Assembly (NCBI GenBank): GCA_030650605.1 | Contig: JAUSDP010000100.1 | Location: 16,383 to 80,382 of the forward strand | DNA: 64,000 nucleotides | Direction: 5' to 3' | Source: a bacterium | GTDB taxonomy: Bacteria > Patescibacteriota > Minisyncoccia > Phycocordibacterales > Zambryskibacteraceae | Shown here: positions 3,715 through 43,213 of the stretch, piece by piece | Layout: each line of letters begins with the position of its first letter | Numbering within the stretch: the first letter of the stretch is position 1 | The notes under the pieces: generated by a model | Database searches by the model: none | Seen by the model: the letters and a program-made list of their open reading frames with translations, nothing else | What the model was told of the DNA's origin: nothing | Translations under genes and position numbers: made by a program

Positions 3715-4019
3715 TTATCCACAAATTCTGTGTATAAGTTCAGTAAAAGCCATATGGGATCTAGCTGTTATCGTTAAATTAAAAATTAAGCAAAATGGTG
3801 CTTCTTTGTGCATAAACACTCGGTATGCTAAAGTCGGGAGGATATTTAAGTGCATTGAAAATTTAATGACGTAGTGAAAGCTGTACCGATCATTTGTCAT
3901 AGCTCTTTAAATCGAATCATCTACCTTTTGGCATGAGCTCGTAAAGTGCGCATTCCTTTTTTACCTACTCGCGTCTTCTGCCAAAGAGACGGCGCTCATT
4001 CATCGGTTTCTAAAATCCA

Positions 4020-10352: not shown

Positions 10353-10382
10353 TCAAATCTTCGATACACCATGAACCACATT

Positions 10383-10730
10383 TTATGTTTTGTAAGTTGC
10401 ATTGATTCCGTTGGCAGAGAGTACCAATAATATCTCAGACACATCTTTTCCCTGATCGGTATTAGGTACACTTTTCCCAAATTGTATTTTGGGATCTTGG
10501 TTTGCTTCAAGAATTACCGTGCGATTTCTCTCTGAAGTTAAATGAAGAACCAATGGGTCAGAATTTGGATCGTTGGCTTGTCTATCAACCAAATACTTTA
10601 AAGCAGAATGTACTGTTGAAATTTCAGACGTTTTCCATAATTTGATGAACACCTGTGTTTTATTGAGGCCCCTGTTCGAATCAGACAAATATTCGTATAG
10701 AGGGACATCTGGCGCCGTCGTTTTATCCAT
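10383..10730 (-). CDS. Hypothetical protein upstream of hipA-like gene (sits where HipB would be, but has no obvious HTH)
   Basis: 115-aa ORF 30 bp upstream of the HipA-like gene. No XRE-type helix-turn-helix detected. Confidence 0.35.
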   Translation of the reverse strand: MDKTTAPDVPLYEYLSDSNRGLNKTQVFIKLWKTSEISTVHSALKYLVDRQANDPNSDPLVLHLTSERNRTVILEANQDPKIQFGKSVPNTDQGKDVSEILLVLSANGINATYKT

Positions 10731-10735
10731 TATTC

Positions 10736-10936
10736 CTATCTCGGGTTGTAACCAGCTTCGACCAGTGCATTAGCGATCTTGTCGCATCCATCTCGCATTA
10801 AATATGCTTCTTCGTCATCCACTGCGTTTTGACGCCACTCCGAAAATCCGACACGCTTCAAAAATTGTGCTAGAGCTTGTGCTTCTTCGTCAGACAAAAG
10901 TGCTGTGATAGTTACCATAAGTTTTTCCTCTTTCAA
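10736..10936 (-). CDS. Small hypothetical protein, 66 aa
   Basis: Short ORF immediately upstream of and co-oriented with 10383..10730. Confidence 0.3.
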   Translation of the reverse strand: MKEEKLMVTITALLSDEEAQALAQFLKRVGFSEWRQNAVDDEEAYLMRDGCDKIANALVEAGYNPR

Positions 10937-11014
10937 TTAAATCTGCTTGCGATATTCATGGGGCATTAAGGTAGTTCATGGCTGGTTTTCTCGGCCATCA
11001 TCTACTGGGAGTAA

Positions 11015-11785
11015 TTATTGTTTAATTTTCCAGAAGACTTCAGCAACGCCTTTTGAAACACGCAATGCTACAAAGAACATTAATAAAAGAGGCCAAGTCC
11101 GGGTTCTTTGACTCCAATCTTCAGTGTCTTTTTTATCCAACATGACTGGAAGTTGAAGTACATAAGCTACTGTGTTGGCCTTCATACACCCGTAAACTCG
11201 AGTATGGCTGTAACCACTCGGCAATGCCACAGATAGGTCAATTGGAAACGGAGGGCAGGCAGCATTTAGCAGGGAAGCATCAATGATTCCATGACTCGAT
11301 AAGGCAGTGATAAGTACAGCCAATCGCCCGCATCCTTTTGCCTCTGTAGGTTGCTGCTCATTGCATTCTTCGTTTGCGGCCAATTTGAGCAGTTGAATGG
11401 CATCGTTACGGCTTTCTGACCATTGGCGTTCTATGCGCGCCCTAGATTCGTCAGCGGACACGACGAACAATTGAATAATAGCGAACACCACACCAATTGC
11501 GGATGCAGATACCCACAATAGATCGATAACTTTGAGATGAAAGGAAGTAATGCGCCTTGAAGCGATGCCCACAATCGAAGACAAGGTCACGATCGTGACA
11601 AGCATGTTTGTTGCAGCCCATTTACTTACTTGCATTACAGGGGCATCAATTCCAGGAAGACGCATGAAGCAGTAATACATTCCCGCAAGACCAATAAATG
11701 CTCCAAAGTAAGCCAGCTTTATTCTTGACGGCAATATTGACCACTGTGTAAACGATCTCTTAGCGAATTGAATTCCGTTGGCCAA
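11015..11785 (-). CDS. Integral membrane protein, 256 aa
   Basis: Several hydrophobic helices (e.g. LAYFGAFIGLAGMYYCF, NMLVTIVTLSSIVGIA, LLWVSASAIGVVFAIIQLFVV). Confidence 0.45.
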   Translation of the reverse strand: MANGIQFAKRSFTQWSILPSRIKLAYFGAFIGLAGMYYCFMRLPGIDAPVMQVSKWAATNMLVTIVTLSSIVGIASRRITSFHLKVIDLLWVSASAIGVVFAIIQLFVVSADESRARIERQWSESRNDAIQLLKLAANEECNEQQPTEAKGCGRLAVLITALSSHGIIDASLLNAACPPFPIDLSVALPSGYSHTRVYGCMKANTVAYVLQLPVMLDKKDTEDWSQRTRTWPLLLMFFVALRVSKGVAEVFWKIKQ

Positions 11786-11880
11786 CTTGGACTCCTTTGA
11801 TTTATTAAGTTACGAAAATAATTTCGCTGAGCTGAAATGTTAATCGCATTTAGAACTCTTGCGTAAGGGATTCTGAAATT

Positions 11881-14800: not shown

Positions 14801-15603
14801 TGTGGATCCAAGCCTCCATCGCCCTTTTCGTTTGGCCTGGATACAGTGTGCATGCACTGCACCCACATCATATTGTCGCCTTTGACCATCCATACATCTT
14901 TTTTGGGATCCACCAATTTAAGTACAGGAACATCAACTCCTGCTTCCTGGCATGCTTTGATTTCAGTGCCTGTCATTCTGTACTCAAGCAAGTATTTCTC
15001 TGTGAATTCAGCTATAGCGGTATCGCCGGCAAGGTGGCCTTTCAAGAAGTTTTCATCGTCAAACACGAGACCTTGCACTGACAAAGACTTTGAATTCGCC
15101 CAATTTCCTTCGAAGCCAATCGTAGAATTTCGTGTTTTTTTAGCGTTTTCTTTGAACGCATTGAGGTCCTTTTTTTGTGCATCTGTGAACGATTTTAGTG
15201 CTTTCTTTTGCTGGCTTTTGAACTCAGTTTTATCGATATTGGAGAGATTTTGATTTCGCAAAAAGCGATCTTTTGTTTTCTCTTGGGCGTTCACAAACTC
15301 TGCTTTTGCTAACTTATGTATGAGCTTCTGTTTCGCCAGGTCTTCATTGGGGCCTCTTTTATAGTCGCGCCTGGTAACTTGCAGCTCCGGTGAATCACCG
15401 AATTTTCCATCGAGAATTTCTGAAAAACGCTCTTCTGAATACTTTGCAAAGCGATCTCCTCCAAGTTTTTCAAGCATTTTTCCTTTAAATTGGTTGGCAT
15501 AATCAGCATGATCTCCTTCCCGATATTTCTGTTGATAGTTATCTGATTTCCTATAACTAGCTATTTGACTCGAGTTGCCAGCAAGTGCATTTTCTGTGTA
15601 CAT
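11881..15603 (-). CDS. traI: MOBF-family conjugative relaxase-helicase (TrwC/TraI-like), 1240 aa
   Basis: N-terminal Tyr-rich relaxase motif I (SYRKSDNYQQKYREGDHADYANQFKGK...LG, matching the TrwC YY...WxG pattern). 3-His motif III (LDPQIHSHSTRATH). Internal Walker A (VVLGRAGTGKST) of the TraI/RecD-like helicase domain. A K-rich insertion separates motif I from motif III. Confidence 0.85.
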   Translation of the reverse strand: MYTENALAGNSSQIASYRKSDNYQQKYREGDHADYANQFKGKMLEKLGGDRFAKYSEERFSEILDGKFGDSPELQVTRRDYKRGPNEDLAKQKLIHKLAKAEFVNAQEKTKDRFLRNQNLSNIDKTEFKSQQKKALKSFTDAQKKDLNAFKENAKKTRNSTIGFEGNWANSKSLSVQGLVFDDENFLKGHLAGDTAIAEFTEKYLLEYRMTGTEIKACQEAGVDVPVLKLVDPKKDVWMVKGDNMMWVQCMHTVSRPNEKGDGGLDPQIHSHSTRATHTVDCAGSLRAIAFGKVYENQHLLDAIGKTAERLFLEDKGYVFYDTKDGYELSGFSRNDIEVFADGSSLRIPEWISSQNKLREDPSHPKHGIYLDINSKHDRDTANAASRGGKDSFDFSAFDDPINDAATGLAAAQAWWKYKAENPLNKELHPVFIEDLRKRVELAQEYGRAHRLEKRTPELAYQMASQGLTERISTIRSKEALLTQMLKEGLYQLEPEILQQKIEEKILSGELIMQNDGRSLTTRELVECEQKIERLVKENFARFKPVCDRALFDAIVLQYEAEKGFKLSKGQKEATYMALTTTSGISVVLGRAGTGKSTSMDLLQRCAEASRVRVFGQAPSGKAKEALADSVYLREKTNGSGMDTYFPHVITTQKAALSEKWWEENIQKGSIVIIDEAGLVDARSMLELLEKANEHQCRIILSGDYDQYHSVGAGAPLKHVSDFIRGNPSENAFKELTEMQRGKDQETIKIHSLCFKSPAEGLVYMSEKNRIVVRNTEDECLKEMATYYNELTEAARDNTFCITKTNEDRRLLNIAIREKIGIEKTRGLEINSFERFGNLTTQDLRNPAQYESGSTVFFNMNSPHSPFQKGEACEVLRVEGSIVKLARTITDKNGLNPKTVEYDYSPMTQSAGVSLGVEERIKICPGERIRFTAANEKLGILNGDRGIVENIDFEKRIATVKIVSTSKIIKVPLPDQGRGLSIRWGYSATGHSSQGGTASTKIFSNPDGTKEDPTISNRAQVLMYVPRKDRGDYNSIYTNSTRSVMGPRSVVLFTDARNVEDVEKTFLEVGVKLVHDRAIEPTKEELAKRLNDEKPILLKSAFVNGNDAWNSKTRCEYIRPEKDLITGQFSKPPSLLEQLKSARETIGPEIGLMGSPKFKKQVIELIVENNLDIRITNEKGGLQALQDTLWATKNNKEALKEFAINLAEPEVEKTKIKEIEVVKIEPVREREKEKYYGREM

Positions 15604-27644: not shown

Positions 27645-28850
27645 TTATCTGGATGAACTGTTTTTTTCTAATTTCGCTGTTTTGGGATCATAAATAAATT
27701 CAGTAATCGATCCATCCCGAATCCGATGCACAGCCTCATCGATTACACTCAACGGCACCAGGAACCACTCTCTCGGTTTCACAGGATTCCCAAATCGGTC
27801 ATCAATAGTTAAATCAAGTTGGGCGCCGGCGAAGATCCGATGAAATAAGTTTTCCAAACTGATGCGGTTCAAATTGTGAAGCTTATACGTGGCCACTACG
27901 TCGACATCAGCCAACAAATAAGTGGCATCCTTCGATGCGTTTGCAATCCTGGTCTCAACCTTCCCTCCGGTCACTCCTATTTTATGGATCAGCTCGCGAT
28001 GTTCAGTAACAAATGGATGCGTTGATTTACTCTGGAGTACATAGATGGTCCCAGTCGCAATGTCTGCCGGCTCGGCAACACTACCAAACAGTGGTCCGTC
28101 ATCCTTGCGAATGAGGCGCCGTCCAACAGGCGTGTCACCATCTGGATACAGGGATCTGGAAAGAGATCTCAATAACAAGTTACCTTCAGTCCCGTTATCA
28201 AAAATAACCCGCAGCCGAGGGTTATCGCGCCCATCCTTGGTCTTATTGGCGTCGTTCATTTCGGCGACGTAAGATGTCTGGCCACTGACAATATAGAAAT
28301 CTCCCACATTGATACTGGCATCCTTAGCGAATGGCTTCGTCATCCAGGTGCCGGCTTTGAGTCCAGATATGGCTTCATCGAACAAATGTTTGAAATTATC
28401 GAAATCCGCGCACGGAGTTCGATTTGCGACTTCTTCAGCGGCCTGAATTTCAACACTGGAGCGAACATGGCGCAAAACTCGGATGTCATTTTCATCCGTG
28501 AGCTCAGTGCTAATCCCGAGCTCAGCAAGTAATGCGTCCTCGTCTAAGCTATCGACATCAACTGCATTTGCTACGACACCAGAAAGCAGCCCGGGTCCAT
28601 CCATAGCGCCCAGCAGAGATTGAGCTTCTGGTAACTTACGAATTTGATCGAGCCGAACAGCATAAATGCGCTCGAAAATATCACCGCTCTCTCCATGCAA
28701 TGGGGCTCGGCCGTGTGCCTGATGGAATCGCAGAATATCTTCGAAGCCAGCAATAATGCGTTCTTCGCGCGCAGTTCGACTTGATACCTTAATCGGAGTG
28801 GCATCAATGCCAAGCGCATCTAGAAGTTCATCATCATTCATTTCAGCCAT
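27645..28850 (-). CDS. T5orf172 / GIY-YIG-like (MUG113-type) domain protein, third gene of the MTase-helicase operon, about 401 aa
   Basis: C-terminal GIY-YIG/T5orf172 signature (GTIYVLQS ... HKIGVTGG ... REWFLV). The chosen ATG at 28850 overlaps the helicase stop (ATGGCTGA). The longer ORF from 29015 would run 170 bp into the helicase gene. Confidence 0.6.
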   Translation of the reverse strand: MAEMNDDELLDALGIDATPIKVSSRTAREERIIAGFEDILRFHQAHGRAPLHGESGDIFERIYAVRLDQIRKLPEAQSLLGAMDGPGLLSGVVANAVDVDSLDEDALLAELGISTELTDENDIRVLRHVRSSVEIQAAEEVANRTPCADFDNFKHLFDEAISGLKAGTWMTKPFAKDASINVGDFYIVSGQTSYVAEMNDANKTKDGRDNPRLRVIFDNGTEGNLLLRSLSRSLYPDGDTPVGRRLIRKDDGPLFGSVAEPADIATGTIYVLQSKSTHPFVTEHRELIHKIGVTGGKVETRIANASKDATYLLADVDVVATYKLHNLNRISLENLFHRIFAGAQLDLTIDDRFGNPVKPREWFLVPLSVIDEAVHRIRDGSITEFIYDPKTAKLEKNSSSR

Positions 28851-30954
28851 TGCTTGAATCCTTTTGCGATTGAGCTGCTTTAGCTTGGGAATATCTGGTA
28901 AAAGCAGCGACGCCTTCGGCCATACGTTTTTCCCAGGCATCCGACGAATTGATATCCGGCAGGCGGCCTCGTTCATTTTTAAACTGAACCGCTCGCCTCG
29001 CAAGGTCGCGAGCATCTTCTTCAGAAATATTTACTCTCTTAGCAGCAATTGTCGCTTGGACTTGTCTTAAAGATTTTTCGTCCATCGCCTTCGCTAAAAC
29101 AGCGTAGGCGGCATCGAAAGGGTTAATGCGATCGATCAGATCGATATCAAGATCACGAACATTAATGAATTTACGGACCCCATCAAGAAACGCTGAGTTA
29201 CCTGGTGGCGTGCCATCATTAGCATCAACTTTAGCCAACTCCAGCTTCGCTTGCTGGGTTACATTCATCGCCGCGATGGCATGTTGACGGATTGATTCCT
29301 GATCAGTATCACTTAAATCTGGGTAACGCTCCCGCACGATCTTACCCATATGGAGTTGAGTGAGTTCTTCTGGTAACGTGTTTTCTTTATCAAAGAGACC
29401 GCGCTCCAAAACTGTTTTCTCTTGTAAAAAACTGGTCACAACTTCGTTTAGGTCTTCCTTGCAGATACGTGTAGCCTCGGGGCTTTGAGGTTTTACCAGC
29501 CCATTGATCTCCACGTGGATCTGACCGGTTTCTTTGTTGACGCCAACGTTTTTACCGTCTTCCTTGTAGCCATCGTCACCGTAATCAAAACCTTCCTTCG
29601 GTCCTGCATTTTTAGGCGTGAACTCATACCGTGGTGCCAAAACTTGTTCCATCAGAAGACTGGCAGAGATTGCCTTGAGCATGTCATTCACGGCTTCAGC
29701 GACAAGTGATTGCTCGGCTGCCGGTTCTGCAATCAAGTTTGTGAAACGGGAACGCTCTTTACCCTCAGCATCACGAGTCGCACGACCAATAATCTGAACG
29801 ATTTCAGTTAAGCTGCTTCTGTAACCTACTGTCAAAGCGTGCTCACACCAAATCCAATCGAAGCCTTCTTTTGCCATGCCGAGGGCAATAATGACATCCA
29901 CGAAATCGCGGTTATTTTTTTGTTTAGGATCTTTTAACGCCGTGAGTACATTCGATCGCTTAGCTTGATCGCTGTCATCTACCAGATCGGCTACTTTCAA
30001 TATGCGGCCATCTTTAGTTTGGACCAGATGAAAACCTGTAATAGGGTCGACACCTTTCCAGTCTCCCATTCCGTGCATGATGTCATTCACTTCGCGCTGC
30101 TTGTCTTTGAGGCTTTCACGCGCATTCACGTTAGGAATGTGAACGATAGTTTTCAAAGAGGGATCTAAAACTTTGTGGATTGCATCAACATAAGGACCGG
30201 TGTAGAAAAAATAACCGATGTCCAGTGATTTGAGCCATTGATACCCATTGAGCTGCTCGTAATACGTGTATGTGATCGTTTCGAATTTGGACTCATCTGT
30301 TGGTGACATCACCGCTTCACTGTCACCACGGAAGTAGGAGCCCGTCATAGCAACCAAGTGCGCCTTATCTCGGGCGATGAGAGCACCTAATTGAGCGCCC
30401 AACTTATTGTCGGGGTTGCTGGAAACATGGTGAAATTCATCAATAGCAACCAGGCGGTCATCAAACGCTTGAATGCCTAGCTCTTCCACCGCGAACCTGA
30501 ATGTGGCATGAGTACAAACGAGAACCTTATCGGCTCCTTCCAAAAACTGTTTTACCGCGTCCACTTTTGACTTAGCCACACGTGGCTCATCGACGCCTGG
30601 TGCGTTGCACAGGTTCCATTGTGGTTCGACTTTCCAATCCCAATAGAACCCAAACTTACTCAAAGGTTCATCGGCAAAGCTGCTTCCAATGGAGCGCTCT
30701 GGTACCACGACGATTGCTTGTTTGAGACCTTGATTATTGATTTTATCGAGCGCGATGAACATGAGGGCTCGGGATTTACCAGATGCCGGAGGTGACTTGA
30801 TCAGCAGATATTGTTCACCACGTTTGGCATAAGCGCGCTCTTGCATGGTACGCATCCCCAGCTCGTTTGCTTTGCTGGATGCGCCGGTGCACGCAGTCGC
30901 AATCGATACTGATGGAACCGTGTATTTATTCGTCGGATTGCTCGATTGATCCAT
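28843..30954 (-). CDS. SF2 DEAD/DEAH-box helicase (restriction Res/HsdR-like motor without a recognisable nuclease domain), 703 aa
   Basis: Motif I KSPPASGKS, motif II VAIDEFHH and motif VI QIIGRATRD. The start codon overlaps the MTase stop (TAATG). Confidence 0.75.
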   Translation of the reverse strand: MDQSSNPTNKYTVPSVSIATACTGASSKANELGMRTMQERAYAKRGEQYLLIKSPPASGKSRALMFIALDKINNQGLKQAIVVVPERSIGSSFADEPLSKFGFYWDWKVEPQWNLCNAPGVDEPRVAKSKVDAVKQFLEGADKVLVCTHATFRFAVEELGIQAFDDRLVAIDEFHHVSSNPDNKLGAQLGALIARDKAHLVAMTGSYFRGDSEAVMSPTDESKFETITYTYYEQLNGYQWLKSLDIGYFFYTGPYVDAIHKVLDPSLKTIVHIPNVNARESLKDKQREVNDIMHGMGDWKGVDPITGFHLVQTKDGRILKVADLVDDSDQAKRSNVLTALKDPKQKNNRDFVDVIIALGMAKEGFDWIWCEHALTVGYRSSLTEIVQIIGRATRDAEGKERSRFTNLIAEPAAEQSLVAEAVNDMLKAISASLLMEQVLAPRYEFTPKNAGPKEGFDYGDDGYKEDGKNVGVNKETGQIHVEINGLVKPQSPEATRICKEDLNEVVTSFLQEKTVLERGLFDKENTLPEELTQLHMGKIVRERYPDLSDTDQESIRQHAIAAMNVTQQAKLELAKVDANDGTPPGNSAFLDGVRKFINVRDLDIDLIDRINPFDAAYAVLAKAMDEKSLRQVQATIAAKRVNISEEDARDLARRAVQFKNERGRLPDINSSDAWEKRMAEGVAAFTRYSQAKAAQSQKDSSNG

Positions 30955-33734
30955 TATGCTTTCTTCCCTTTTTTTGTAATTTTGGCGCCAACAGCTGTCA
31001 TCTTTGTGTATAGATCAAATAGTTTTTCTAATCGTTCTGTATCGTTCTTGAAGCGCCGTCCAATATAGATCCGCTCTATAACTTCGTCGTTTCGTTCATG
31101 GGCAAGACGCAGGTTTTCAGGCATCTTATCCGGATCGTACAAGTCGGCGATGGTAGATGGAAAATGTGTCTCGCGTGCCAATAAAATGTTTTCGGCGCTT
31201 GCGGTCAGGTCTGCCTTGTTCTGTTCAGTGAGAAGAGGGATGGGGAAGGTGTTCCAGCCAAGTTCGTTTGAGTAGCGAAAATCAGTCTTCAGCTGCCCAC
31301 AAATAGTTGCAATCCACGATAAATGCAGCTTTGAAACTAGAATCGCAAGTTGCCAAAGCGGGGCATCAAAAATCGCAAACGCCTCACTAGAAACTGTGCT
31401 ATCTGTTGCTATCAAACCAGCGGGTAAGTAACGGCGAGACTCTGAAGATGTTCTTGGCATCACTACCGTGTGGACGCTGGCACCACGCATTTCTCTCAAT
31501 TGATGTGCCCGCGCAGCCATTGCTCTTCCACCTGAATCGGTACTATTCAAGCGCATTTCTTTTACCGCATTCACACGAAGTCTAATGCCAGGTATTAGCA
31601 TCGCTTCTGGAAAATTTTCGTCTTCAATCCAAAGACAGTATCTACTTAATCCGTTTGTGAACTCCTTCGACCCGTAAATCCTTCGAATAAAGCTCTGACG
31701 CTGTGCTTTAGTCAGATTTAACTCGATGAGTTCATCACGGGAAAGTAGCAGGCTGCCACCGTCATACGGCATGTTGCCCAAGTCCATATTTGACAAACCG
31801 TTTATAGGTTTTGAACTCTTTTCAATGAGTACGTTTGCCCCCCCAACAAGATAGGCATTTATGAATGAAACATCCTTTGCCAGTAACTCACCTTCGTCTG
31901 TTATCGAGTAGATCTTTCGGGCAGTCCGTGCCTCTCTCGAAAGTCCGATGATTGCGACTATCACGCCAGCATTGTGGGCGGCTAAATTTTTCCACTTAAA
32001 GGACGTGTGTGCAAAGCTGATCTCATACTGATCTCCAAAAATCTGCGGCCAAATCAATGGAACTTGATGACCTCTGGAAATAGAATTTGTTGAAACAAAA
32101 GCACATGATGCGTTGGTGCTTTTACCGTAGTCAACAGCTTTAATAAACCAACATCCGACATAGTCGATATAGCCATGCTTGACACCACGTGGGCCAAAAA
32201 TATTTTCCATGTCGGAGATCTGCTGCGCTGATTTCTTACCTTTGCCCGCATATGGTGGATTGCCGCAAATGTACGTTTCCCCCCCTTCGTTCTCGAAGTC
32301 AATTTCTACCTGATTCAGCGGAGTACCAAACAAATCATCTGCCACCAGCTTCACGCCTGTTCCCGTGGGCGGGCAAATACTTAGCCAATCCAAACGAAGG
32401 GCGTTACCGCAAACAATCCAGTTTTGCGCATCGAGCGGAAGAAACTCTGCCAAGGCATCCTGTTGACCTCGATAAAGTACGTCACACTGAAACTCTGCAA
32501 TGATGAGCGCCAGGCGTGCTATCTCCGCAGGAAAGTCACATAGCTCAATTCCTCTATAGTTCGTTAGTGGAATTTCACTGCCTTGATGTTGTTCACCGCG
32601 CCGCCGATTAATTTCACCTTCGATCTCACGCATCTGCTTATAGGCGATAACTAGGAAGTTCCCGGATCCACACGCCGGATCGAAAACACGAATCCGCGCA
32701 ATACGTTTCCGCAGATTCAAAAGCTTCCGATCGTTTTCCCCGGCCTCGTCCAACTGCGCCCGCAGGTCATCAAGGAATAGAGGATTCAACACCTTCAAAA
32801 TATTGGGCACACTGGTGTAGTGCATTCCAAGAGAACCACGCATTTCCTCATTGGAAACAGCCTGGATCATGCTTCCGAATATATCCGGATTGATCTCTTT
32901 CCAATTCAATCCACCGGTATGCAGCAGGTAGGTACGCGCCATACGAGTGAATCGTGGAACATCTGTACTGCCAGAGAAGAGACCACCATTCACATAAGGA
33001 AATCCGGCAATCCAAGTAGCCAAACGAGGTTTGGCTCCAGCACGTTCGGCAACCTTAATATTCATGGATCTGAAAATTTCGGATACCACTTCATGAGTGT
33101 TCAAACCATCGCGGTCACTAATTTGCTCGACAGTTTTCGTAAAGAGGCCGTTACCTTCGAAGATATTAGTATCCTCAGCAAAAAAACAGAACACAAGGCG
33201 CGCCATAAAGTGATTCATGTCTTGGCGGCGCTCTTCTTTTGCCCACTCTGGATTCTCACGCAAGAGCTCGACATACAGCTTGTTCAGGCGCCCAGTCGCA
33301 CGTACGTCAACTGGATTGTCTTTGATCTCTTTGATCGTCGAGATGCCAGCCAGTGGCAGGAAGAAACCAAAATGGTTTGGGAAATCTTGATAAGCGCACG
33401 CGATTGTCTCGCCACCATTTAAATCTTCGGATTCCAGACTCTGACCATCGGTGGCCAAAATGAATTTGGCTTTAGCTTTTGTTGTTGTCGAGCTGGCGCG
33501 CAGCGCTTTAAGGGTTTCGCCCACACTACCGGCATCACAAACTGCGATATGGATATTATTCCGTTGGAGTACGCCGCCAGAAACATCGGAAGCGTTGTTA
33601 TTTCCCGATCGCAGACGCTGAAGTGTTGTGTCCTTATTTCCAAAGGCGGCAAGAAAGTGATACGGGAACTCAGTAGCATCAAAGGGTTGGAGCGCTAAAT
33701 TCGAAACGGCTTCTTCTATTTCTACAGCGTTCAT
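30954..33734 (-). CDS. Gamma-class N6-adenine DNA methyltransferase with a long C-terminal target-recognition region (MmeI/PglX/type IIG-like architecture), 926 aa
   Basis: AdoMet motif I VFDPACGSGNFLV and catalytic motif IV CGNPPYAG. Roughly 300 aa N-terminal to the MTase core and roughly 350 aa C-terminal to it. Confidence 0.8.
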   Translation of the reverse strand: MNAVEIEEAVSNLALQPFDATEFPYHFLAAFGNKDTTLQRLRSGNNNASDVSGGVLQRNNIHIAVCDAGSVGETLKALRASSTTTKAKAKFILATDGQSLESEDLNGGETIACAYQDFPNHFGFFLPLAGISTIKEIKDNPVDVRATGRLNKLYVELLRENPEWAKEERRQDMNHFMARLVFCFFAEDTNIFEGNGLFTKTVEQISDRDGLNTHEVVSEIFRSMNIKVAERAGAKPRLATWIAGFPYVNGGLFSGSTDVPRFTRMARTYLLHTGGLNWKEINPDIFGSMIQAVSNEEMRGSLGMHYTSVPNILKVLNPLFLDDLRAQLDEAGENDRKLLNLRKRIARIRVFDPACGSGNFLVIAYKQMREIEGEINRRRGEQHQGSEIPLTNYRGIELCDFPAEIARLALIIAEFQCDVLYRGQQDALAEFLPLDAQNWIVCGNALRLDWLSICPPTGTGVKLVADDLFGTPLNQVEIDFENEGGETYICGNPPYAGKGKKSAQQISDMENIFGPRGVKHGYIDYVGCWFIKAVDYGKSTNASCAFVSTNSISRGHQVPLIWPQIFGDQYEISFAHTSFKWKNLAAHNAGVIVAIIGLSREARTARKIYSITDEGELLAKDVSFINAYLVGGANVLIEKSSKPINGLSNMDLGNMPYDGGSLLLSRDELIELNLTKAQRQSFIRRIYGSKEFTNGLSRYCLWIEDENFPEAMLIPGIRLRVNAVKEMRLNSTDSGGRAMAARAHQLREMRGASVHTVVMPRTSSESRRYLPAGLIATDSTVSSEAFAIFDAPLWQLAILVSKLHLSWIATICGQLKTDFRYSNELGWNTFPIPLLTEQNKADLTASAENILLARETHFPSTIADLYDPDKMPENLRLAHERNDEVIERIYIGRRFKNDTERLEKLFDLYTKMTAVGAKITKKGKKA

Positions 33735-35499: not shown

Positions 35500-37569
35500 A
35501 TGACAGAGACAGAACCCAAAAAATTAGACTTCAACAATTCGGCCCCAACTACCTCCCCCACCCGAGCACGCAAACTCCATCTCGGCCACTTCGCCTTTAT
35601 GCGTGCAGTAGTTCAAGGCCTGGACGCCCAATCAAGTTGGAACCGCTACTTACGACTTGACGGTGACTATAGCGATTTAAGAATCACAAAAAAGACTATC
35701 GCTTGGATCCGAGATGAATTCGCTGCGGCCGCACGTCGGTACGATAGACATGGTACCGCCAGGCTTGTTCTCATGGATGCAACTACGATTTCCGATAAAT
35801 CAGGTGAACTACAATCCCTGGACGAATTCGTCGTTGAAATGGGGCTAGAGGATTTCTCTGAAACCGAACAGATTGAAGCCTACCAAGAAAAATTTGGAAA
35901 CAAAACTCAGCAGCAATCCAGACGCGCTAAGCTGATTTCAAAGCAACTTGAAGCTCTGAAATGGCTTGAAGAATTGGTAGCCCAACCGCCATTATCCGGA
36001 GATGCAATTGCATCCTGGTTTAACCCAGACTTGGTTACCCATTTAGAAGCGGCAGACATTTTTACTGTCCGAGCGCTCGTTGAGAGAATCAACGGATCCG
36101 GCTTACGATGGTGGTCAGGTATCAAGGCAATCGGAGCTCTCAAAGCGAAACGAATTGTTGAGTGGTTAAGTGTGCACGAGGTGACTATCGGGTTACGAAT
36201 AGGTACCCACACACTTGTTCAACGCTCAAAACTGCAGCCGGAAGAATTGGATCGAGTTGTCGCAAGAAAGACCGGAATCGTCCCATTAGAAAAGTTTGTA
36301 ATGCCGGCAGAGCTGAATGGCACCGACGGAATGTACCGGGCACCACAACGTCTCTGTTTGATGCGCGCCGATAATGACTACGATGCCATACTGACCTGGC
36401 TGAAATCGAAGCATGGGCCGTCTGAAGCGGTGATAGCTAAGAAAAAGGCATCAAGTTCTAGCCAAAAAATGGATCCATCAAATCCGCTTGCCTGGCTAAG
36501 TAGTCTTTCTAATACACAGCGTGCCTACAAGAAGGAAGCAGAACGATTCCTGCTTTGGGCCATCGTGCAGCACAAGAAACCCTTGTCTTCGATGACGTTG
36601 GAAGATTGCGAATCCTACCGTGAATTTCTGGCCAACCCGGCACCGGCTGACAGATGGTGTGGGCCTCGGTGGCGAGAGAAATGGAGCCCATTATGGAGAC
36701 CATTTGAAGGCCCTTTGGCGCCGCGCGCACAGCGACAATCCGTTACTATTTTGAAGTCAATGTATCGCTTCCTGGTCGATCAATGCTATTTGATTGGAAA
36801 CCCATGGAACGGGGTTTTGACGCCAAAATCGAATCAAAAAATCAATAAGGGTCACAGCTTCTCACGATCACAATGGAAATTCATTAACGAATATCTTTAT
36901 ACGTTGCCTGATCACTCGGCGAATATTCGAATTAGTTTCGCCATACATTTCCTGTATGCAACTGGACTAAGATTATCTGAAGCTGTCATGTCGAAGGTGG
37001 ATCATTTGAATTGGATGAGTTATCCTGCCGATGAAGAATCTGATGGCGTTGAAGGGTGGGAACTTACTGTTATTGGCAAGGGGGACAAGGAAAGAACTAT
37101 TCCGATCCCAATTGAAATCGTCGCAGAGCTTTCCCAATATTTGGAGTCCAGAGGTTTGGACTCCGATCCTACGGATCCATCGAATGTTGGAGTTTTCCTG
37201 TTTGGCAAGACCACAGACGTAGCCGAGAGAGCACCATGGTCACCGAAATCTACATTAGATGTTGACCCTAAGTCAGGGATCGTAGCGAGTACGCTCGCAG
37301 ACCAATTGAAGAGATTCTTCGCTAATTGTTCTGACGCCATGATGCTTGTTGATCCCCAAAGTGCAAGTAAGCTTGCATCTGCCAGCACTCACTGGATGCG
37401 ACACACACATGGATCCCATTCGCTTGCATCCGGAATGCCGCTTGAAATCCTTCAACAAAATCTGGGACACGCTTCGCTTAATACCACCACTGTGTATTCC
37501 TCAAGCGAAGAAAGTCGTCGGATGAAGGAAGTTCAGAAATTCTGGCAGAAGAATCGGACGGGATCGTAA
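35500..37569 (+). CDS. Tyrosine recombinase / integrase (large, 689 aa)
   Basis: C-terminal catalytic signature HWMRHTHGSHSLASGMPLEILQQNLGHASLNTTTVYS (the R ... HxxR ... H ... Y pattern). Confidence 0.8.
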   Translation: MTETEPKKLDFNNSAPTTSPTRARKLHLGHFAFMRAVVQGLDAQSSWNRYLRLDGDYSDLRITKKTIAWIRDEFAAAARRYDRHGTARLVLMDATTISDKSGELQSLDEFVVEMGLEDFSETEQIEAYQEKFGNKTQQQSRRAKLISKQLEALKWLEELVAQPPLSGDAIASWFNPDLVTHLEAADIFTVRALVERINGSGLRWWSGIKAIGALKAKRIVEWLSVHEVTIGLRIGTHTLVQRSKLQPEELDRVVARKTGIVPLEKFVMPAELNGTDGMYRAPQRLCLMRADNDYDAILTWLKSKHGPSEAVIAKKKASSSSQKMDPSNPLAWLSSLSNTQRAYKKEAERFLLWAIVQHKKPLSSMTLEDCESYREFLANPAPADRWCGPRWREKWSPLWRPFEGPLAPRAQRQSVTILKSMYRFLVDQCYLIGNPWNGVLTPKSNQKINKGHSFSRSQWKFINEYLYTLPDHSANIRISFAIHFLYATGLRLSEAVMSKVDHLNWMSYPADEESDGVEGWELTVIGKGDKERTIPIPIEIVAELSQYLESRGLDSDPTDPSNVGVFLFGKTTDVAERAPWSPKSTLDVDPKSGIVASTLADQLKRFFANCSDAMMLVDPQSASKLASASTHWMRHTHGSHSLASGMPLEILQQNLGHASLNTTTVYSSSEESRRMKEVQKFWQKNRTGS

Positions 37570-37667
37570 CTAGTAGTTACGTTGCATTTCTAACTTCAAT
37601 CAAATTCAAGTTAGCTTTTGGCAAAGTCTATTTACCTTTAAAAGAAAAAAGACAACCAATTTTGAGA

Positions 37668-38280
37668 TTATAAGCTGCTTATAATTGTTTATTTATTAGC
37701 CGATTGAACTCAAAAATATTCGTTAATATAGTCTACTTCATACACTATCTATTCTTCTTCATAGCTGAATTTTAGAACCCAATTATAAGCAGCTTATAAA
37801 CCGTAAAATATGCTCTTTGAAATTCATTCAACAATCATAGCTTTTACCGGTCCGATTAATTTCTAAAATATAAGCCGCTTATAAACCGTAAAATATGCTT
37901 TTTAAGGTTTCACTGGAATATTTGGTAACAACAAAGAAGATAAAAATTGAAAAATAGATTTTGTGATTACGTATTTGACGCAAATGTTGAAAATTTACTG
38001 AAAATCCAAACCGTAAAATATGCTCTTACATAAATTCTATATGGAAATCGTTCATATTTATGGAAGAAATTTTATAAGCAGCTTATAAACCTAAAACTAT
38101 GCTGTTTCAATTTGCAATTGCATCAAATAGAGCAGCTGAAGTATTTTAAAGAAATTGAATAAAACCACATAGCTGAATATTCTTAAGGCAATAAGTAAAA
38201 CTATAATTATTATTTCACACAATGTGAAAGTCATAATAATCAAAACAAGTCCTGAAACGAACGGTAAATGTATAACCGTA
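37668..38280. repeat. Composite repeat array: 17-bp palindromes TTATAAGCWGCTTATAA (x4) abutting 16-bp iteron-like repeats AACCGTAAAATATGCT (x5)
   Basis: Palindromes at 37668-37684, 37783-37799, about 37869-37883 (shorter arms) and 38072-38088. Iteron-like units at 37799-37814, 37884-37899, 38009-38024, 38088-38103 (variant) and 38265-38280. The reverse complement AGCATATTTTACGGTT resembles the oriV iterons AGCATAGTTTCAGGGA / AGCAGAGTTTACGGGA. Confidence 0.6.
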
Positions 38281-38324
38281 AAATATGCTATCTCATACAC
38301 TATAATTTTAAAAAAAGCATGGCC

Positions 38325-38352
38325 CGAAAAAAACCCCGCATAAAGCGGGGCA
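38325..38352 (-). terminator. Rho-independent terminator of the parAB operon
   Basis: On the minus strand, ccccgctttatgcgggg is followed by tttttttcggg, 27 bp downstream of the parB stop. Confidence 0.55.
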
Positions 38353-38378
38353 TCTTGTAAGTGAGTACTTAGTATGAA

Positions 38379-39365
38379 CTACTGATTGCTAAGAACAAGA
38401 TTTCTTAAGGCGTCAATCATTAGGCTGTTAACCACATTCTTATCTATATTTTCGTCCTTTATATCAATAACGATTTGATTATTTTTAATTTTCACAGTGA
38501 ACATAGAATCTCCCTGTAAATTTGAAACAATCGTAGGCTTAACAATCGGACTACGACTACGGTTCAATAATGCTCGTTCCACGAATGATCGTAAATCATC
38601 ACTGTTAAGTTCGTTATTATCAATAAGCTGCTCAATGCCCTGAGTTATTGTATCGATGCCTAACGGAAATTCCTTCATTAAATCTGAGACGACAACTCCA
38701 TATCGATATCCAAAAAGCCCAGGATATTTATCAAGAATATCTTTGACTTCGAGTGGCAAAGATAAAAGACTTAAACATTGCGAGACTCGAGCTTGAGTGC
38801 AACCAAATAAACGAGCAACCTCAGTTTGGTTTTTTGCAAATCCACGATCCACACTTTTGCGGTAGGCTAAACCCTTTTCATAGTCAGTAAGGTCTACCCG
38901 TCCTTCATTGCTAACTAAAGTTGCAAGCTCGGCATCGCGGTCATTTAAAACAACTATTTGGGCCTTTATGGTGCTCCAGCCAATTAACCTGGCAGCACGT
39001 ACTCGACGATGGCCTGCAATAAGCTCAAAACGCCCCGTAGGGAGTTTTCTAACGATAATTGGATCGTCTTGCCCTCGATCCTGAAGCATCTCTCCTAATG
39101 CCTGAATATAACCTTCATCGTACCTAGAACGTGGTTGCCATGGCGAGTCATCAACTAAATTGACTGCAATTGTTTCAATGTAGTTATTACCATCTTGATT
39201 TACTAATTGAGCATTTTGAGTGTCTTCGATTAAAGCCTCTAAGCTTTTCGAATTGGTAGATGGAGGCTTGGTCATTACCATGCCATTATTTTTTGTCGCC
39301 ATATCTTGCTGAAACTTCCTTCTCAGCTCATCGTTAAATTCAGCTTCGGTTTTCTTTTGATTCAT
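38379..39365 (-). CDS. parB: ParB-family partition protein, 328 aa
   Basis: ParB N-terminal box IVRKLPTGRFELIAGHRRVRAARL. 4-nt overlap with parA upstream. Confidence 0.8.
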   Translation of the reverse strand: MNQKKTEAEFNDELRRKFQQDMATKNNGMVMTKPPSTNSKSLEALIEDTQNAQLVNQDGNNYIETIAVNLVDDSPWQPRSRYDEGYIQALGEMLQDRGQDDPIIVRKLPTGRFELIAGHRRVRAARLIGWSTIKAQIVVLNDRDAELATLVSNEGRVDLTDYEKGLAYRKSVDRGFAKNQTEVARLFGCTQARVSQCLSLLSLPLEVKDILDKYPGLFGYRYGVVVSDLMKEFPLGIDTITQGIEQLIDNNELNSDDLRSFVERALLNRSRSPIVKPTIVSNLQGDSMFTVKIKNNQIVIDIKDENIDKNVVNSLMIDALRNLVLSNQ

Positions 39366-40441
39366 AAGACACCCATACGGCCAACGAGAGCCTGTGCAAC
39401 AGCACGCAACTCCACAGAAGCATTACTGCTTGGTTTCGCGACAGCTAATGGCAATTCATAATCTTCAGAAGATAGAACCTTTTTAAATTCTTCAGAGCTA
39501 CTAATCGATTTATCAACCCAAGAATCTTTATATTGATTCACCAAAGTAATAACTTGGGCGGCAACTCGCAATCTAGTCTTATCGTAGAAATTACCCAGAA
39601 TTAACAACTCAGGATACTTTCCTAAGCTACTTTCCATTTCTCCCAAAACTTTCGCTAAATAAGAAACCGATTTTGTACTGTATCTTTCCATAGATACTGG
39701 AGCTACTACATAATCACTGGCTAATAATGCACCCCTGGTCGTTTGATTTTTAGCTGGGGGAGCATCAAAAAGAATAACGTCGTAGGACGATAAATCAAGA
39801 TCAGGATTTGTTCCGTTCATACCTTCATACAAAAATTTGGCAATTGTAGTTTCAGGATTTTTACCCATGATCGTGTCAAGTGTGAAAAGTGCTTCTAGTC
39901 TGTCCAAGCTGACCTCGCTTGGTATCAGATGAGGACCGAATTCTCCGAAGGGCTTTTTGATAACATCATTTAACGGTGGAGTTGATGAAGCCTGCCATTG
40001 CGGCATCAAATGTCCGAAATGATAGTCAATACATTTATCGATTGGAATGTTGTCGTCTAGAGCTTGTTCATGCGTAAGTTCTGCGTCATAACCGAATGAC
40101 ATAGATAAATTAGCTTGAAAATCGAGATCAATAACTAAGGTTTTCAGCCCCATTAATGGGAAAAGTGTGCTTAAATTTGAAGCTACCGTAGTTTTTCCAA
40201 CCCCACCTTTTGGAGCGTAAATTGTCATAATGACTTTACGTTTTGGTGTGAGACCAATTTTCTTAGCTCTAAATCTCGCTAATTCAAAAATGTTTTCAAT
40301 ACTGAAAAGACGAGTTTTAGGACCATCACCAGTCTGTCTTTGAATAAGAATTCCTGATTCGTCTGTATCACGTCGAATGGAATCTACAGTTGTTCCGAGC
40401 AAGTTTGCAACTGCTTGAACCTTGAAAGGTTTGCGTTCCAA
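39362..40441 (-). CDS. parA: ParA-family partition ATPase (type Ia, with N-terminal HTH-like extension), 359 aa
   Basis: Deviant Walker A box TIYAPKGGVGKTTVASN. About 100-aa N-terminal extension. Confidence 0.85.
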   Translation of the reverse strand: MERKPFKVQAVANLLGTTVDSIRRDTDESGILIQRQTGDGPKTRLFSIENIFELARFRAKKIGLTPKRKVIMTIYAPKGGVGKTTVASNLSTLFPLMGLKTLVIDLDFQANLSMSFGYDAELTHEQALDDNIPIDKCIDYHFGHLMPQWQASSTPPLNDVIKKPFGEFGPHLIPSEVSLDRLEALFTLDTIMGKNPETTIAKFLYEGMNGTNPDLDLSSYDVILFDAPPAKNQTTRGALLASDYVVAPVSMERYSTKSVSYLAKVLGEMESSLGKYPELLILGNFYDKTRLRVAAQVITLVNQYKDSWVDKSISSSEEFKKVLSSEDYELPLAVAKPSSNASVELRAVAQALVGRMGVL

Positions 40442-40671
40442 GATAAGTCTCCAGTATTTAAGAGACTAAATGGTAGCCAATAAAAATTGTTTTTGCAAGG
40501 ATTTTTAGTTTTTTTTAGAAATATCCTAGCAAACAAATATTTTTCTGAATCTATAGACTAATCATTGAAAACAACAACAAGCATCTGTTGTTGTTTATTT
40601 TTAAAAACAACATCTTTAAAAACGTTTACGTTACTAAGACCCTTTATACATGCGGCTCTCAGCTTAGATAC

Positions 40672-40860
40672 AGCATAGTATCCGGGTTGAAATGACATAG
40701 TTTTAGGGAAAAAGTCGTTTCAAATAGCAGAGTTTACGGGAGGTAAAATTGTCAGAAAGCATAGTTTCAGGGATGATTTGCAAGTAAAAGCATACTTTCA
40801 GGGATGTCGCAAAAATGATACTGAAATAGCATATTTCTAAAAAATGGAATATGCTATTTC
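40672..40860. repeat. Replication origin iterons (about 5 copies of AGCATAGTTTCAGGGA-like 16-mers) plus inverted-repeat operator upstream of the rep gene
   Basis: Units begin near 40672, 40695, 40723, 40759 and 40790. The inverted repeat aaatagcatattt / aaatatgctattt at 40824-40858 contains the AGCATA half-site. An AT-rich tract with the hairpin aacaacaaca ... tgttgttgtt lies at 40572-40600. Confidence 0.6.
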
Positions 40861-40885
40861 AAAATTTATATAATTCTTAAAATTA

Positions 40886-42094
40886 ATGTCAAACGAAATT
40901 ATCCCAAAAAAAGAATTAAAAAAACACGTCGCGACCATACACACGAGCGGTGTCCTTTCGTTCACAGAGCGTAAGCTTTTAAACGTATTGTTGCTGAATG
41001 CATTCGATAATTTACTCGATAAAAGAATTCATAGTATCCCTGTAAAGTTATTGCTGCCGCTCATAGGCTGGGCCGATAGTTTGAATACGGTGGATCTCAA
41101 AAAATCTCTCTCCAAACTGACAACTACAGAAGTCAAATTTGACTTGCTTGGTGATTCAAAAGAGGAATGGGGTACTACTGCTTTTCTTGCGCACGCAAAA
41201 ATTAAAGATGGCGTTTGTACGTACGAATATAGTTCGTTTCTTTCTACAAAAATGGCGAACCCAGAAATTTATGGAACCATTAATGTGTCAATGCAAAATC
41301 AATTTTCAGGTGGCTATGCTCTGAACCTTTATGAGAACTGTAAGCGTTTCAGAAAAGTGGGTTCCACTGGGTTTATTGAAGTCAGCAAGTGGAAAGATTT
41401 ACTGGGTGCCTCTGCTCCGATGTATGACGACTTTAGACATTTCTCAAATCACGTCATCAAAAAAGCGATGAATGAGATCAATAAGGTCTCCGATATTCAT
41501 ATTGAAGTCGTATATCAAAGACACATGAGGAAAGTTACTCATTTAAAATTTTTGATTACTGATAATTCGCAGCGGTCGATCTATGAAATTGCGATGGAAA
41601 CGCAAGAAAGCGGGTTAGATTTACTCCGTGAAACTAAGGCTTATAAACGATTATTTGAACATGGTATAGGCGATAAACTTGCTCTCTCAATGATCAACGA
41701 GCAGGGTGAGAATAAGATAAATGATCTTATCGATTACGTAGAAAACAAGGACAAGAAAAAGCAAATAAAAGGATCTACCGCTGGATATATTCGGGTACTT
41801 GTTGAGTCCGGTGCGACGGTGACCACTACTGCATATGAAGCCGGAAAACGAAAGAAAGAAATCGAAGAGAATGCGGCGATTAATACGATTGAAAAATCTG
41901 AAATTTCAAAGCAAGAAACCTTTAAGAAATTATTAAAGGTAATGACACTAGAGCAGAAGATTGAATGGGCTCAGAAATATTTTTCGTTAGAAGGCGCCGG
42001 GAAAGAAGCAAATTTCAATGTTGAAAAAGGTGAGTTTTCTAAGGGGGAGCCAAACATTCATTTCATGAGTTGGATGAGAAAACAAAATATTTGA
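40886..42094 (+). CDS. Rep_3-like iteron-binding plasmid replication initiator, 402 aa
   Basis: N-terminal LSFTERKLLNVLLLNAF resembles the conserved winged-helix segment of the Rep_3 family. Sits directly downstream of the iteron cluster. Confidence 0.65.
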   Translation: MSNEIIPKKELKKHVATIHTSGVLSFTERKLLNVLLLNAFDNLLDKRIHSIPVKLLLPLIGWADSLNTVDLKKSLSKLTTTEVKFDLLGDSKEEWGTTAFLAHAKIKDGVCTYEYSSFLSTKMANPEIYGTINVSMQNQFSGGYALNLYENCKRFRKVGSTGFIEVSKWKDLLGASAPMYDDFRHFSNHVIKKAMNEINKVSDIHIEVVYQRHMRKVTHLKFLITDNSQRSIYEIAMETQESGLDLLRETKAYKRLFEHGIGDKLALSMINEQGENKINDLIDYVENKDKKKQIKGSTAGYIRVLVESGATVTTTAYEAGKRKKEIEENAAINTIEKSEISKQETFKKLLKVMTLEQKIEWAQKYFSLEGAGKEANFNVEKGEFSKGEPNIHFMSWMRKQNI

Positions 42095-42196: not shown

Positions 42197-43213
42197 ATGC
42201 CACAAGCGCTGACACTAACTACAGAACTTGAAACAATATCCCAAAATTTGATTGATGCATTTGATCTCAAGTTTGAGGAAGAAGATCAAAATTTAATGGA
42301 TCCAATTATTCGATGGCTTGATTATCGATTGCGTTACATTGATCCACGACCAAGAAAGATAATGAAATCGGATGGATTTGATGCGCGCATTCCGATCGAG
42401 GCTCTACCGGTTCTAAAAGCATTTATTAAACTTGTGAAAACCGGGAAAAACCTCAATGCATTTCAAACGGAAACAATTAAGCGTAACGATACTAGCGGCA
42501 CTAAACGTCAATTGCGAACTGATGGATTGTGGGCAGATTGGGGGATACACCACGTTCACCTAACAGATGTGCCATTAAAAAGTGGTAAAGAATTTTCTGC
42601 TCGTTCTGATTGGCTGCTATTTTTCTTAGTAACGGACAATCATCTTGCTCTTATTGATGTGCGACCTCATGGTGAGCAAGGTGTATTTCAGGCCAACGAC
42701 CTGGTTGAAAAAATGATTCGAAGTTGGCCACAAATCACAAAGAGATTCGAGTTGAAGGGAGTATTGGGATTAGCTCGCTCACCGTCAACCGACGCAAATT
42801 CAATTAAAGATCTTAGAATGGGTGGAGTGACTCAAATGATAGAGGTTGATGGTAAGGTATATTGTCCACCAGGATATGGAGTAACAACGGCAGCTACTTC
42901 TACGAAGGTATCTTTAGCTCGCCTCCAAGTTAGGCGGAATGTTGAATCGATTTTGGACTTCTACAATATGCCAGAGGGCCAAATAATGAAGGCTGCTTCT
43001 CTAAAGGGGGTTACAAATCCAGTCCTCTCATTCACGTTGTCGTCGGCGGGGCGACTTGCGATTTCATGCTCTGAGACAGGCGAAAATATTCCGTTTCCAT
43101 CACGCCCTATACAAGGGGACGCGCGTTCCGAACTAGAATATTTATTATTACCTCAGTGGGCTGGTCTGAAACTATTTAAGTATCTTTCAACAAGGCCGGA
43201 TTCTGAATTATGA
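42197..43213 (+). CDS. Hypothetical protein, 338 aa
   Basis: Long ORF. No confident domain. Confidence 0.35.
   Translation: MPQALTLTTELETISQNLIDAFDLKFEEEDQNLMDPIIRWLDYRLRYIDPRPRKIMKSDGFDARIPIEALPVLKAFIKLVKTGKNLNAFQTETIKRNDTSGTKRQLRTDGLWADWGIHHVHLTDVPLKSGKEFSARSDWLLFFLVTDNHLALIDVRPHGEQGVFQANDLVEKMIRSWPQITKRFELKGVLGLARSPSTDANSIKDLRMGGVTQMIEVDGKVYCPPGYGVTTAATSTKVSLARLQVRRNVESILDFYNMPEGQIMKAASLKGVTNPVLSFTLSSAGRLAISCSETGENIPFPSRPIQGDARSELEYLLLPQWAGLKLFKYLSTRPDSEL

Follow-up and report, generated by a model that had tools for sequence, protein, structure and literature searches.

The window, a 64,000-nucleotide stretch of DNA analysed here at its full length, contains an array in which two kinds of repeated site are interleaved and in part fused: a 17-base-pair (bp) palindrome, the candidate centromere (parS) of the ParB protein encoded beside it, and a 16-bp unit related to the iterons of the replication origin. 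The array lies within an 809-bp stretch (37570-38378) between two convergent genes, for a recombinase and for ParB. In related plasmids the palindrome-iteron modules are conserved while the spacers between them have turned over, and the paired layout has been kept. The best explanation overall is that the array is probably a two-component cis-acting maintenance locus of an iteron-type ParABS plasmid of the Undibacterium/Oxalobacteraceae group.

Layout and conservation of the paired sites

The original prediction placed four palindromes and five irregularly spaced 16-mers in this array. Both sets were recovered where it had put them and are far above chance, and its description of the sequence proved accurate in all details. 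There are four copies of the palindrome TTATAAGCWGCTTATAA in the 64 kb, three of them exact and one (ATATAAGCCGCTTATAA) with two mismatches, and none outside the array; the chance expectation is 0.22. The 16-mer AACCGTAAAATATGCT occurs exactly four times (starting at 37799, 37884, 38009 and 38274) and once as the three-mismatch variant AACCTAAAACTATGCT, giving five units against about 0.75 expected by chance. Three palindromes are directly joined to a 16-mer, as had been proposed, and share one nucleotide (nt) with it; at position 37799, for example, a single base ends a palindrome and begins a 16-mer. All five units point the same way, opposite to the five origin iterons at 40672-40804, and two of them (38009 and 38274) have no palindrome.

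The array sits behind the parB terminator, between the 3' ends of the integrase gene and parB. Promoter-like sites were not enriched (9 against 12.8 expected), and an operator role was rejected, as the array lies between convergent 3' ends. An Rfam scan of 37.0-41.2 kb gave nothing above noise, the two sub-threshold hits being the parB terminator, and a DNA similarity search found no match to the array DNA among PLSDB plasmids or phage records. Two contigs encoding a ParB 100% identical to that of the window (L025 and L026) stop inside the array and contribute one informative variant only (Table 1).

The array was compared with about 20 related plasmid loci (given L numbers below), found as ParB homologues and as Rep homologues traced to contigs. 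Further relatives came from species-representative genomes (among them L015, Undibacterium seohonense KACC 16656), from metagenomes and from the Massilia, Janthinobacterium and Undibacterium plasmids in PLSDB. The window together with L003, L011, L015 and L016 has 20 complete palindromes. In 19 of these an iteron lies no more than 25 bp away on the side toward parB, and 17 palindromes are fused to it in a single register with a 1-nt overlap. The iterons distal to the origin all have the same orientation, and each array also carries one to three iterons without a palindrome. The pattern in L041 is the same, but also includes a fused copy whose junction is offset by a single base and two pairs with about 25-27 bp between their members.

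The modules and the spacers differ in their conservation. In L003, L015 and L016, 139 of 144 module columns are invariant, compared with 1075 of 1303 spacer columns (Fisher p = 1e-6). When the window is set against any relative, only modules of 30-45 bp align and the spacers do not. Larger repeats were also seen: in L041 (4373-5411) and L011 (4545-5025) there is a super-unit composed of an iteron 25 bp from parS, a lone iteron ending GGTG and a fused iteron::parS. The L041 copy with the one-base junction shift is at about 4456.

Candidate binding proteins of the palindrome and the 16-mer

The 17-bp, odd-centred palindrome is present in two to seven copies downstream of parB in all examined relatives whose ParB is 41-80% identical to that of the window. 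Its core is GCnGC, the centre base being unpaired (A, T, C or G were seen), and its arms are of the type TTATAAGC or TTATTAGC, with TTATTAAC in one case. When 17 ParBs were aligned (window, L003, L005, L009, L011-L013, L015-L019, L023, L024, L037, L038 and L041), Ala192 was found with TTATAAGC arms and Gly192 with TTATTAGC or TTATTAAC (TTATTA.C) arms in 17 of 17. The rule held for 10 of 10 ParBs at first and then out of sample for L023, L024, L037, L038 and L041; L015 and L016 were added. Arm position 5 is an A·T pair where residue 192 is Ala and a T·A pair where it is Gly. Residue 192 falls within the motif GC(T/S)Q[A/G]R(V/I)SQ, which aligns with the first turn of the recognition helix in Noc and Spo0J structures, and a neighbour-joining tree requires at least four independent switches of arm type and residue.

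Co-variation of this kind is about the strongest evidence that sequence alone could provide for the palindrome being the parS of this ParB, and leaves little doubt that it is the parS of this ParB family. The locus otherwise has the composition of a ParABS system, with a Walker-type ParA upstream, a ParB with a CTP motif and a helix-turn-helix (HTH), and a repeated palindrome adjoining the operon. The original proposal of a candidate parS was thus strengthened, both by the retention of the palindrome downstream of parB to 41% ParB identity and by an arm variant that co-varies with a recognition-helix residue. A core site for a tyrosine recombinase was considered and rejected: the 8-bp arms with a 1-bp spacer are unlike such sites, the palindrome co-varies with ParB, and it is present in loci that have no adjoining recombinase. 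A scan of viral contigs with GGTTTATWAGCNGCTWATAA returned 10 matches, all of them single chance matches within phage open reading frames (ORFs), where they encode G-L-L-A-A-N/Y, with no adjoining iteron. A different centromere architecture for the same ParB family was observed in L013 (7528-7833), where palindromes with the T·A arm (T-type) are closely packed in tandem, repeating every 26-27 bp with GTCYGG-rich spacers.

The window is nested among T-type relatives in the tree, which implies that its parS copies and its ParB switched type while the iteron junction was retained. As the pairing has persisted through both spacer turnover and a switch in parS specificity, the module appears to be under selection.

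The identity of the 16-mer was examined with a weight matrix built from ten origin iterons of L003 and L011, none being taken from the window, and both window strands were scanned. Of about 128,000 positions, the nine that scored highest comprise all five distal units and four origin iterons of the window, so the likeness to the origin iterons that had originally been noted is reproduced by an independent matrix. Over 12 contiguous bases the variant at 38088 is identical to the origin iteron at 40694, and one L003 origin iteron, CACCGTAAAATATGCT, is the window's distal unit itself. The scan of the window found no iteron cluster downstream of rep.

The distribution of the 16-mer was then set against that of the initiator. 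The Rep proteins of L003, L015 and L016 are 85% identical to that of the window, that of L041 is 75% identical and that of L011 72%; all five plasmids have AGCATA-type origin iterons and AGCATA units in the array that follows parB. AGCATA units are absent from plasmids that have the same palindromes and an unrelated Rep (about 24% identity), and three such lineages carry their own CCCTGnnnnnnCTCACC iterons beyond parB. L009 (3657-4170) has four direct and four inverted CCCTGnnnnnnCTCACC-type iterons after four parS sites, L005 (8597-8917) has iterons of its own type beyond parB after an insertion sequence (IS), and in L024 (7619-8506) and L038 (8593-9160) inverted iterons of their own type lie between parB and the parS block. 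A second iteron cluster beyond parAB, as originally described, recurs in three iteron lineages. L024 and L038, both Massilia plasmids, also have more than 20 iterons in one orientation over about 2 kb between rep and parA (L024 2560-4671; L038 3563-5669).

These observations suggest that the 16-mer is very likely the iteron of the adjacent Rep3-family initiator. As for auxiliary iterons generally, a Rep3 initiator is accompanied by tandem origin iterons and an operator, and extra repeats that match the consensus lie outside the origin. In position the array falls outside the incA/incC pattern, since the distal cluster is beyond parAB, 2.4 kb from the origin, and not beside rep.

An alternative is that the 16-mer belongs to a partition protein, either as an equivalent of P1 Box B read by a second ParB domain or as an operator for an N-terminal HTH of ParA. 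P1 ParB does read two motif types, and for most of the loci sampled the lineages of ParA (95-97% versus 73-75%) and Rep are confounded. That confounding is removed by L042, whose Rep is 55%, ParA 28% and ParB 36% identical to those of the window: despite the unrelated ParA and distant ParB it retains AGCATA-type AGCATAGTTT iterons, and its thirteen AGCATAGTTTnGGGGG iterons are all located next to rep, as is an AGCATA operator. Conversely, the ParBs of L005, L009 and L017 are 60% identical and have the same palindrome, but no AGCATA units are found with them. The 16-mer is also of the same family as the five direct repeats by rep, its AGCATA half recurs in the inverted repeat at the rep promoter, and the parA promoter carries a different conserved inverted repeat, TTGCAAGGAT. 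Binding of the 16-mer by ParA or by a second ParB domain was rejected on the evidence of L042, L005, L009 and the parA promoter, and this assignment is regarded as highly improbable.

It is still less probable, to the point of being barely credible, that the array serves as another replication origin, or that it enhances the origin through looping by Rep, in the manner of R6K alpha and beta. The array is AT-rich, its iterons are inverted relative to the main cluster, and Rep-mediated looping between distant iterons has precedent in R6K and P1. However, the distal iterons are irregularly spaced (79-186 bp) and do not form the tight 22-32-bp tandem typical of origins, no DnaA box is nearby, and in all relatives the conserved origin elements (the AT-rich block, the hairpin and the AACAACATCTTTAAAAAC stretch) remain next to rep.

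Proposed function of the array and its alternatives

In the proposed mechanism, a Spo0J/Noc-like and probably CTP-dependent ParB dimer would bind and load at the 17-bp palindromes, and monomers of the adjacent Rep3 (WH1-WH2) initiator would bind the 16-bp auxiliary iterons. In a composite module such as window 37775-37825, Rep would occupy AGCATATTTTACGG and ParB the palindrome. The distal cluster would lower the frequency of initiation by titrating Rep, and could handcuff with the five inverted origin iterons 2.4 kb away, either in trans or with parAB looped out. As ParB loads or spreads, it would impede Rep at the control iterons; alternatively, Rep would stop ParB from moving toward parAB and the origin. 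Copy-number sensing and assembly of the partition complex would in this way share one stretch of DNA. Interdependent occupancy would be expected, because nearly every parS has a parB-proximal iteron, usually with a 1-base overlap.

The analogies for copy control and for interference between ParB and Rep are taken from P1, F, pPS10 and Vibrio cholerae chromosome II. Additional iterons located away from an origin, such as those of P1 incA and F incC, reduce initiation by titrating the initiator and by pairing with the origin iterons. In pPS10, monomers of a WH1/WH2 Rep bound to iterons handcuff origins through WH1 (PMC4857107). By these analogies, a role of the distal cluster in copy control is favoured, with somewhat more confidence than doubt. 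Genuine coupling of ParB and Rep may also exist, but is advanced tentatively. A stronger form of coupling, in which the fused module is a dedicated site for a Rep-ParB co-complex, with Rep capturing or gating ParB-CTP clamps or ParB loading evicting Rep, is improbable. Were it true, the partition complex would be a direct sensor or regulator of how much free initiator is available, and a hard-wired checkpoint between replication and segregation, previously thought to be confined to domesticated secondary chromosomes, would be present in an ordinary plasmid.

Several points weigh against the maintenance-locus reading, and some of them suggest that parS and the auxiliary iterons could be functionally independent, their adjacency being an incidental result of duplication of composite units and neither protein affecting the other. 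Part of the regularity is attributable to such duplication, since some copies share flanks that indicate recent events (L015 5533 versus 6494; the L041 super-units). The distance between iteron and parS is variable (-1, 0 or 24-27 bp, the latter in the spaced pairs of L011 and L041), which argues against a strict stereospecific Rep-ParB contact and favours a proximity effect. Relatives function with separate parS and iteron blocks (L009, L024 and L038), and L012, L013, L023 and L042 have no distal iterons, so fusion is not required for this type of replicon. Few lineages supply the related loci, and counts such as 19 of 20 are therefore not independent events. Every functional step proposed for this plasmid family is, moreover, inferred.

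Full independence is nevertheless rather unlikely. The pairing is found in 19 of 20 cases, always on the same side and in the same orientation. It has outlasted spacer divergence beyond the point of alignment, as well as a switch of parS type that needed changes in every copy. Two proteins whose sites overlap by 1 nt could, in addition, hardly ignore each other.

A further alternative assigns the distal iterons to partition rather than to copy control: Rep would be a one-sided roadblock or architectural partner beside parS, confining ParB-CTP clamps to the array and away from parAB, the origin and the rep promoter. The iteron is always on the side of parS that faces parB and the origin, and the ParB, which has a GxxRxxA-type CTP motif, aligns with structures of ParB/Noc proteins that form clamps. 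Roadblocks to ParB made up of Rep-iteron complexes have been documented (PMC7725951), and KorA bound beside its site captures KorB clamps (PMC11790492). Against this, each array contains lone iterons that have no parS (two in the window, and two or three apiece in L011, L015 and L041), and relatives that lack distal iterons still have parS adjoining parB. An effect on copy control would also be hard to avoid, as extra iterons are expected to titrate Rep regardless. A function in partition instead of copy control is considered quite improbable.

Plasmid context and related systems

The coordinates of the array and of the neighbouring genes and sites are collected in Table 1.

Table 1. Sites of the array and adjoining partition and replication features, in window coordinates.
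Feature	Position	Strand	Remarks
DUF3701 tyrosine recombinase	35500..37569	+	Convergent with parB, bounds the array; syntenic in L009, L015, L041 and L042
parS palindrome 1 (TTATAAGCTGCTTATAA)	37668..37684	.	Exact; unfused; decayed iteron 32 bp away
Decayed sixth iteron, with flank in common with the 38274 copy	~37717..37748	-	37724-37748 versus 38279-38303, 80%
parS palindrome 2	37783..37799	.	Exact; fused to iteron
Distal iteron (minus strand AGCATATTTTACGGTT)	37799..37814	-	1-nt overlap with palindrome 2
parS palindrome 3 (ATATAAGCCGCTTATAA)	37868..37884	.	Two mismatches; near-identical contig L025 has TTATAAGCTGCTTAT there
Distal iteron	37884..37899	-	Fused to palindrome 3
Distal iteron, lone	38009..38024	-	Sequence and matrix match
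parS palindrome 4	38072..38088	.	Exact; fused to iteron
Distal iteron variant (AGCATAGTTTTAGGTT)	38088..38103	-	Nearest to the origin iterons; top matrix score among distal units
Distal iteron, lone, closest to parB	38274..38289	-	Sequence and matrix match
parB intrinsic terminator hairpin	38333..38351	-	Conserved in L003, L011, L015 and L041
parB	38379..39365	-	ParB_N and HTH_ParB hits; motif GHRRVRAA; recognition helix GCTQARVSQ (Ala192)
parA	39362..40441	-	Walker ATPase; AAA_31/CbiA/ParA Pfam hits; upstream of parB
Inverted repeat TTGCAAGGAT ... ATCCTAGCAA in the parA promoter region	40493..40532	.	Also upstream of parA in L003, L005, L011 and L041
Five origin iterons, AGCATAGTTTCAGGGA type	40672..40804	+	Starts 40672, 40694, 40726, 40758 and 40789; direct repeats
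Inverted repeat TGAAATAGCATATT / AATATGCTATTTCA directly upstream of rep	40822..40861	.	Equivalents in L003, L011, L041 and L042
rep	40886..42094	+	Rep3-family initiator, Rep3_N and Rep3_C hits; WH1 and WH2 domains

ParA is a protein of 359 amino acids whose ATPase domain begins at residue 71, leaving an N-terminal extension of about 70 residues. ParB aligns with Noc and Spo0J structures over residues 60-213, its GHRRVRAA arginine patch being as in CTP-binding ParBs. The inverted repeat in the parA promoter region is distinct from the 16-mer, is kept in both ParA lineages and is likely the par operator.

The origin region between parA and rep is 445 bp long. The inverted repeat directly upstream of rep has an AGCATA half in common with the iteron and is likely an operator for Rep dimers. 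In replicons with a WH1/WH2 Rep, monomers bind the iterons and dimers bind an inverted-repeat operator at the rep promoter (PMC4857107); with its iterons and an inverted repeat at the rep promoter, the origin region has this standard anatomy. An AT-rich block with a conserved hairpin lies to the left of the origin iterons. In the window (40569-40625), hairpin AAACAACAACAAGCATCTGTTGTTGTTT is followed by AACAACATCTTTAAAAAC, and both are kept in L003, L011, L015 and L041. No DnaA box was found in or near the origin or the array; three DnaA-box-like 9-mers, one of them a perfect TTATCCACA, occur within 100 bp at 3715-3815, far from the Rep origin. There is also an inverted match of 17 of 18 nt between the parA promoter region (40511-40528) and the left arm and spacer of the rep operator (40827-40844), the single difference being AGGATA to AGCATA; the match is lost in L003 and may be coincidental.

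Elsewhere in the window there are genes for a HipA-family toxin (9009-10352) and a TrwC-type relaxase-helicase of 1240 amino acids (11881-15603), which together span 9009-15603. Probable defence genes are found at 27645-33734, namely an MmeI-type restriction-modification enzyme (926 amino acids), a DEAD-box helicase and a T5orf172/MUG113-domain protein. The TrwC relaxase, the HipA toxin and the MmeI-type restriction system identify the window as a mobilisable or conjugative plasmid. In two close relatives whose Rep is 85% identical (L001 1-681 and L002 1234-2611), a gene near rep encodes an actin-like ALP_N protein that could belong to a second partition system. The 338-amino-acid ORF beside rep in the window (42197-43213) was rejected as such a system, as it has no similarity to the ALP_N protein of L002.

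P1 shares with this plasmid an iteron-type Rep, a second iteron cluster outside the origin, a large ParA with an N-terminal extension and a parS downstream of parB. The incA locus of P1 is the textbook locus for handcuffing and titration. It directly follows repA and is apart from parS, whereas the cluster described here is beyond parAB and is interleaved or fused with parS. The P1 parS is a Box A/Box B/IHF site, in contrast to the plain 17-bp palindrome and the Spo0J/Noc-like, CTPase-type ParB of this plasmid. The original comparison with incA therefore holds for the proposed function only; it fails for position (2.4 kb from rep, beyond parAB) and for partition type (Spo0J/Noc-like, not Box A/Box B). 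P1 RepA-iteron complexes block ParB spreading, a roadblock that is cited in PMC7725951.

F resembles the plasmid in having a WH1/WH2 initiator, RepE, with origin iterons and auxiliary iterons (incC), and RepE-iteron complexes are roadblocks to ParB(F) about 3-4.5 kb from sopC (PMC7725951). The iterons of F are, however, kilobases from the centromere, and sopC is a tandem 43-bp array without iterons inside. A closer juxtaposition is found in V. cholerae chromosome II, where parS2-B adjoins the rctA 39-mer, an inhibitory initiator-binding site. ParB2 spreads into this 39-mer or competes there with the initiator RctB, promoting replication (PMC3688505; PMC6090056). The array has a comparable adjacency, with a 1-nt overlap, and its iterons are presumed to be inhibitory. 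RctB uses 39-mers and methylation-dependent 11/12-mers, whereas Rep3 has ordinary iterons of 16-20 bp, and the single parS near a single 39-mer contrasts with a repeated module whose sites overlap by 1 nt.

In RK2, O_B (TTTAGCGGCTAAA) is likewise an odd-centred palindrome read by a ParB-family CTPase, KorB, and the T-type site has the core TTAGCnGCTAA in common with it, with different flanks (the 13-bp O_B site is TTTAGCSGCTAAA). DNA-bound KorA (at O_A), beside the KorB site or at a distance from it, captures the KorB clamp (PMC11790492); the partner there is a repressor that acts in transcriptional silencing, not an initiator. No KorB-specific Pfam domain was found in this ParB, which has ParB_N and HTH_ParB alone, and KorB is a weak match in the PDB (E = 2e-9). 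Chromosomes c2 and c3 of Burkholderia cenocepacia, a member of the same order (Burkholderiales), have repA-type initiators, clusters of 19-21-bp iterons and parS sites scattered around parAB, and the c2 iteron consensus ctCCCGAAAAacCTCACCTtt resembles the iterons of L005, L009 and L024 (PMC4948915). The Bsr parS is a 16-bp perfect palindrome with a central CG (PMC5450999), and differs from the 17-bp site with a free central base and a GCnGC core described here; no fused iteron::parS module is described for these Burkholderia regions or the Bsr systems. The array is thus outside the RctB system, the Bsr centromere family and KorB/O_B, and its nearest functional counterparts are P1 incA with parS, F incC with sopC and the rctA region.

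In low-copy plasmids, copy control by iterons and partition by ParABS are generally regarded as separate modules. The crosstalk of ParB2 with RctB, the one well-studied case, was read as an adaptation to chromosomal life that is 'neither necessary nor evident' in plasmids. The literature search, whose coverage was incomplete, found no paper on iterons downstream of parB or fused to parS; in Oxalobacteraceae plasmids, auxiliary iterons on the far side of parB appear to recur without having been described. The Ala192/Gly192 pair is a natural one-residue switch of ParB-parS specificity, which is useful for the study of how incompatibility evolves and for orthogonal partition tags. Because both sites fit on one oligonucleotide, the array is a simple, compact and easily testable system. 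In this clade of plasmids, initiator and centromere sites are placed in one conserved 32-bp module that is repeated three to six times, a layout that may link the control of copy number to segregation.

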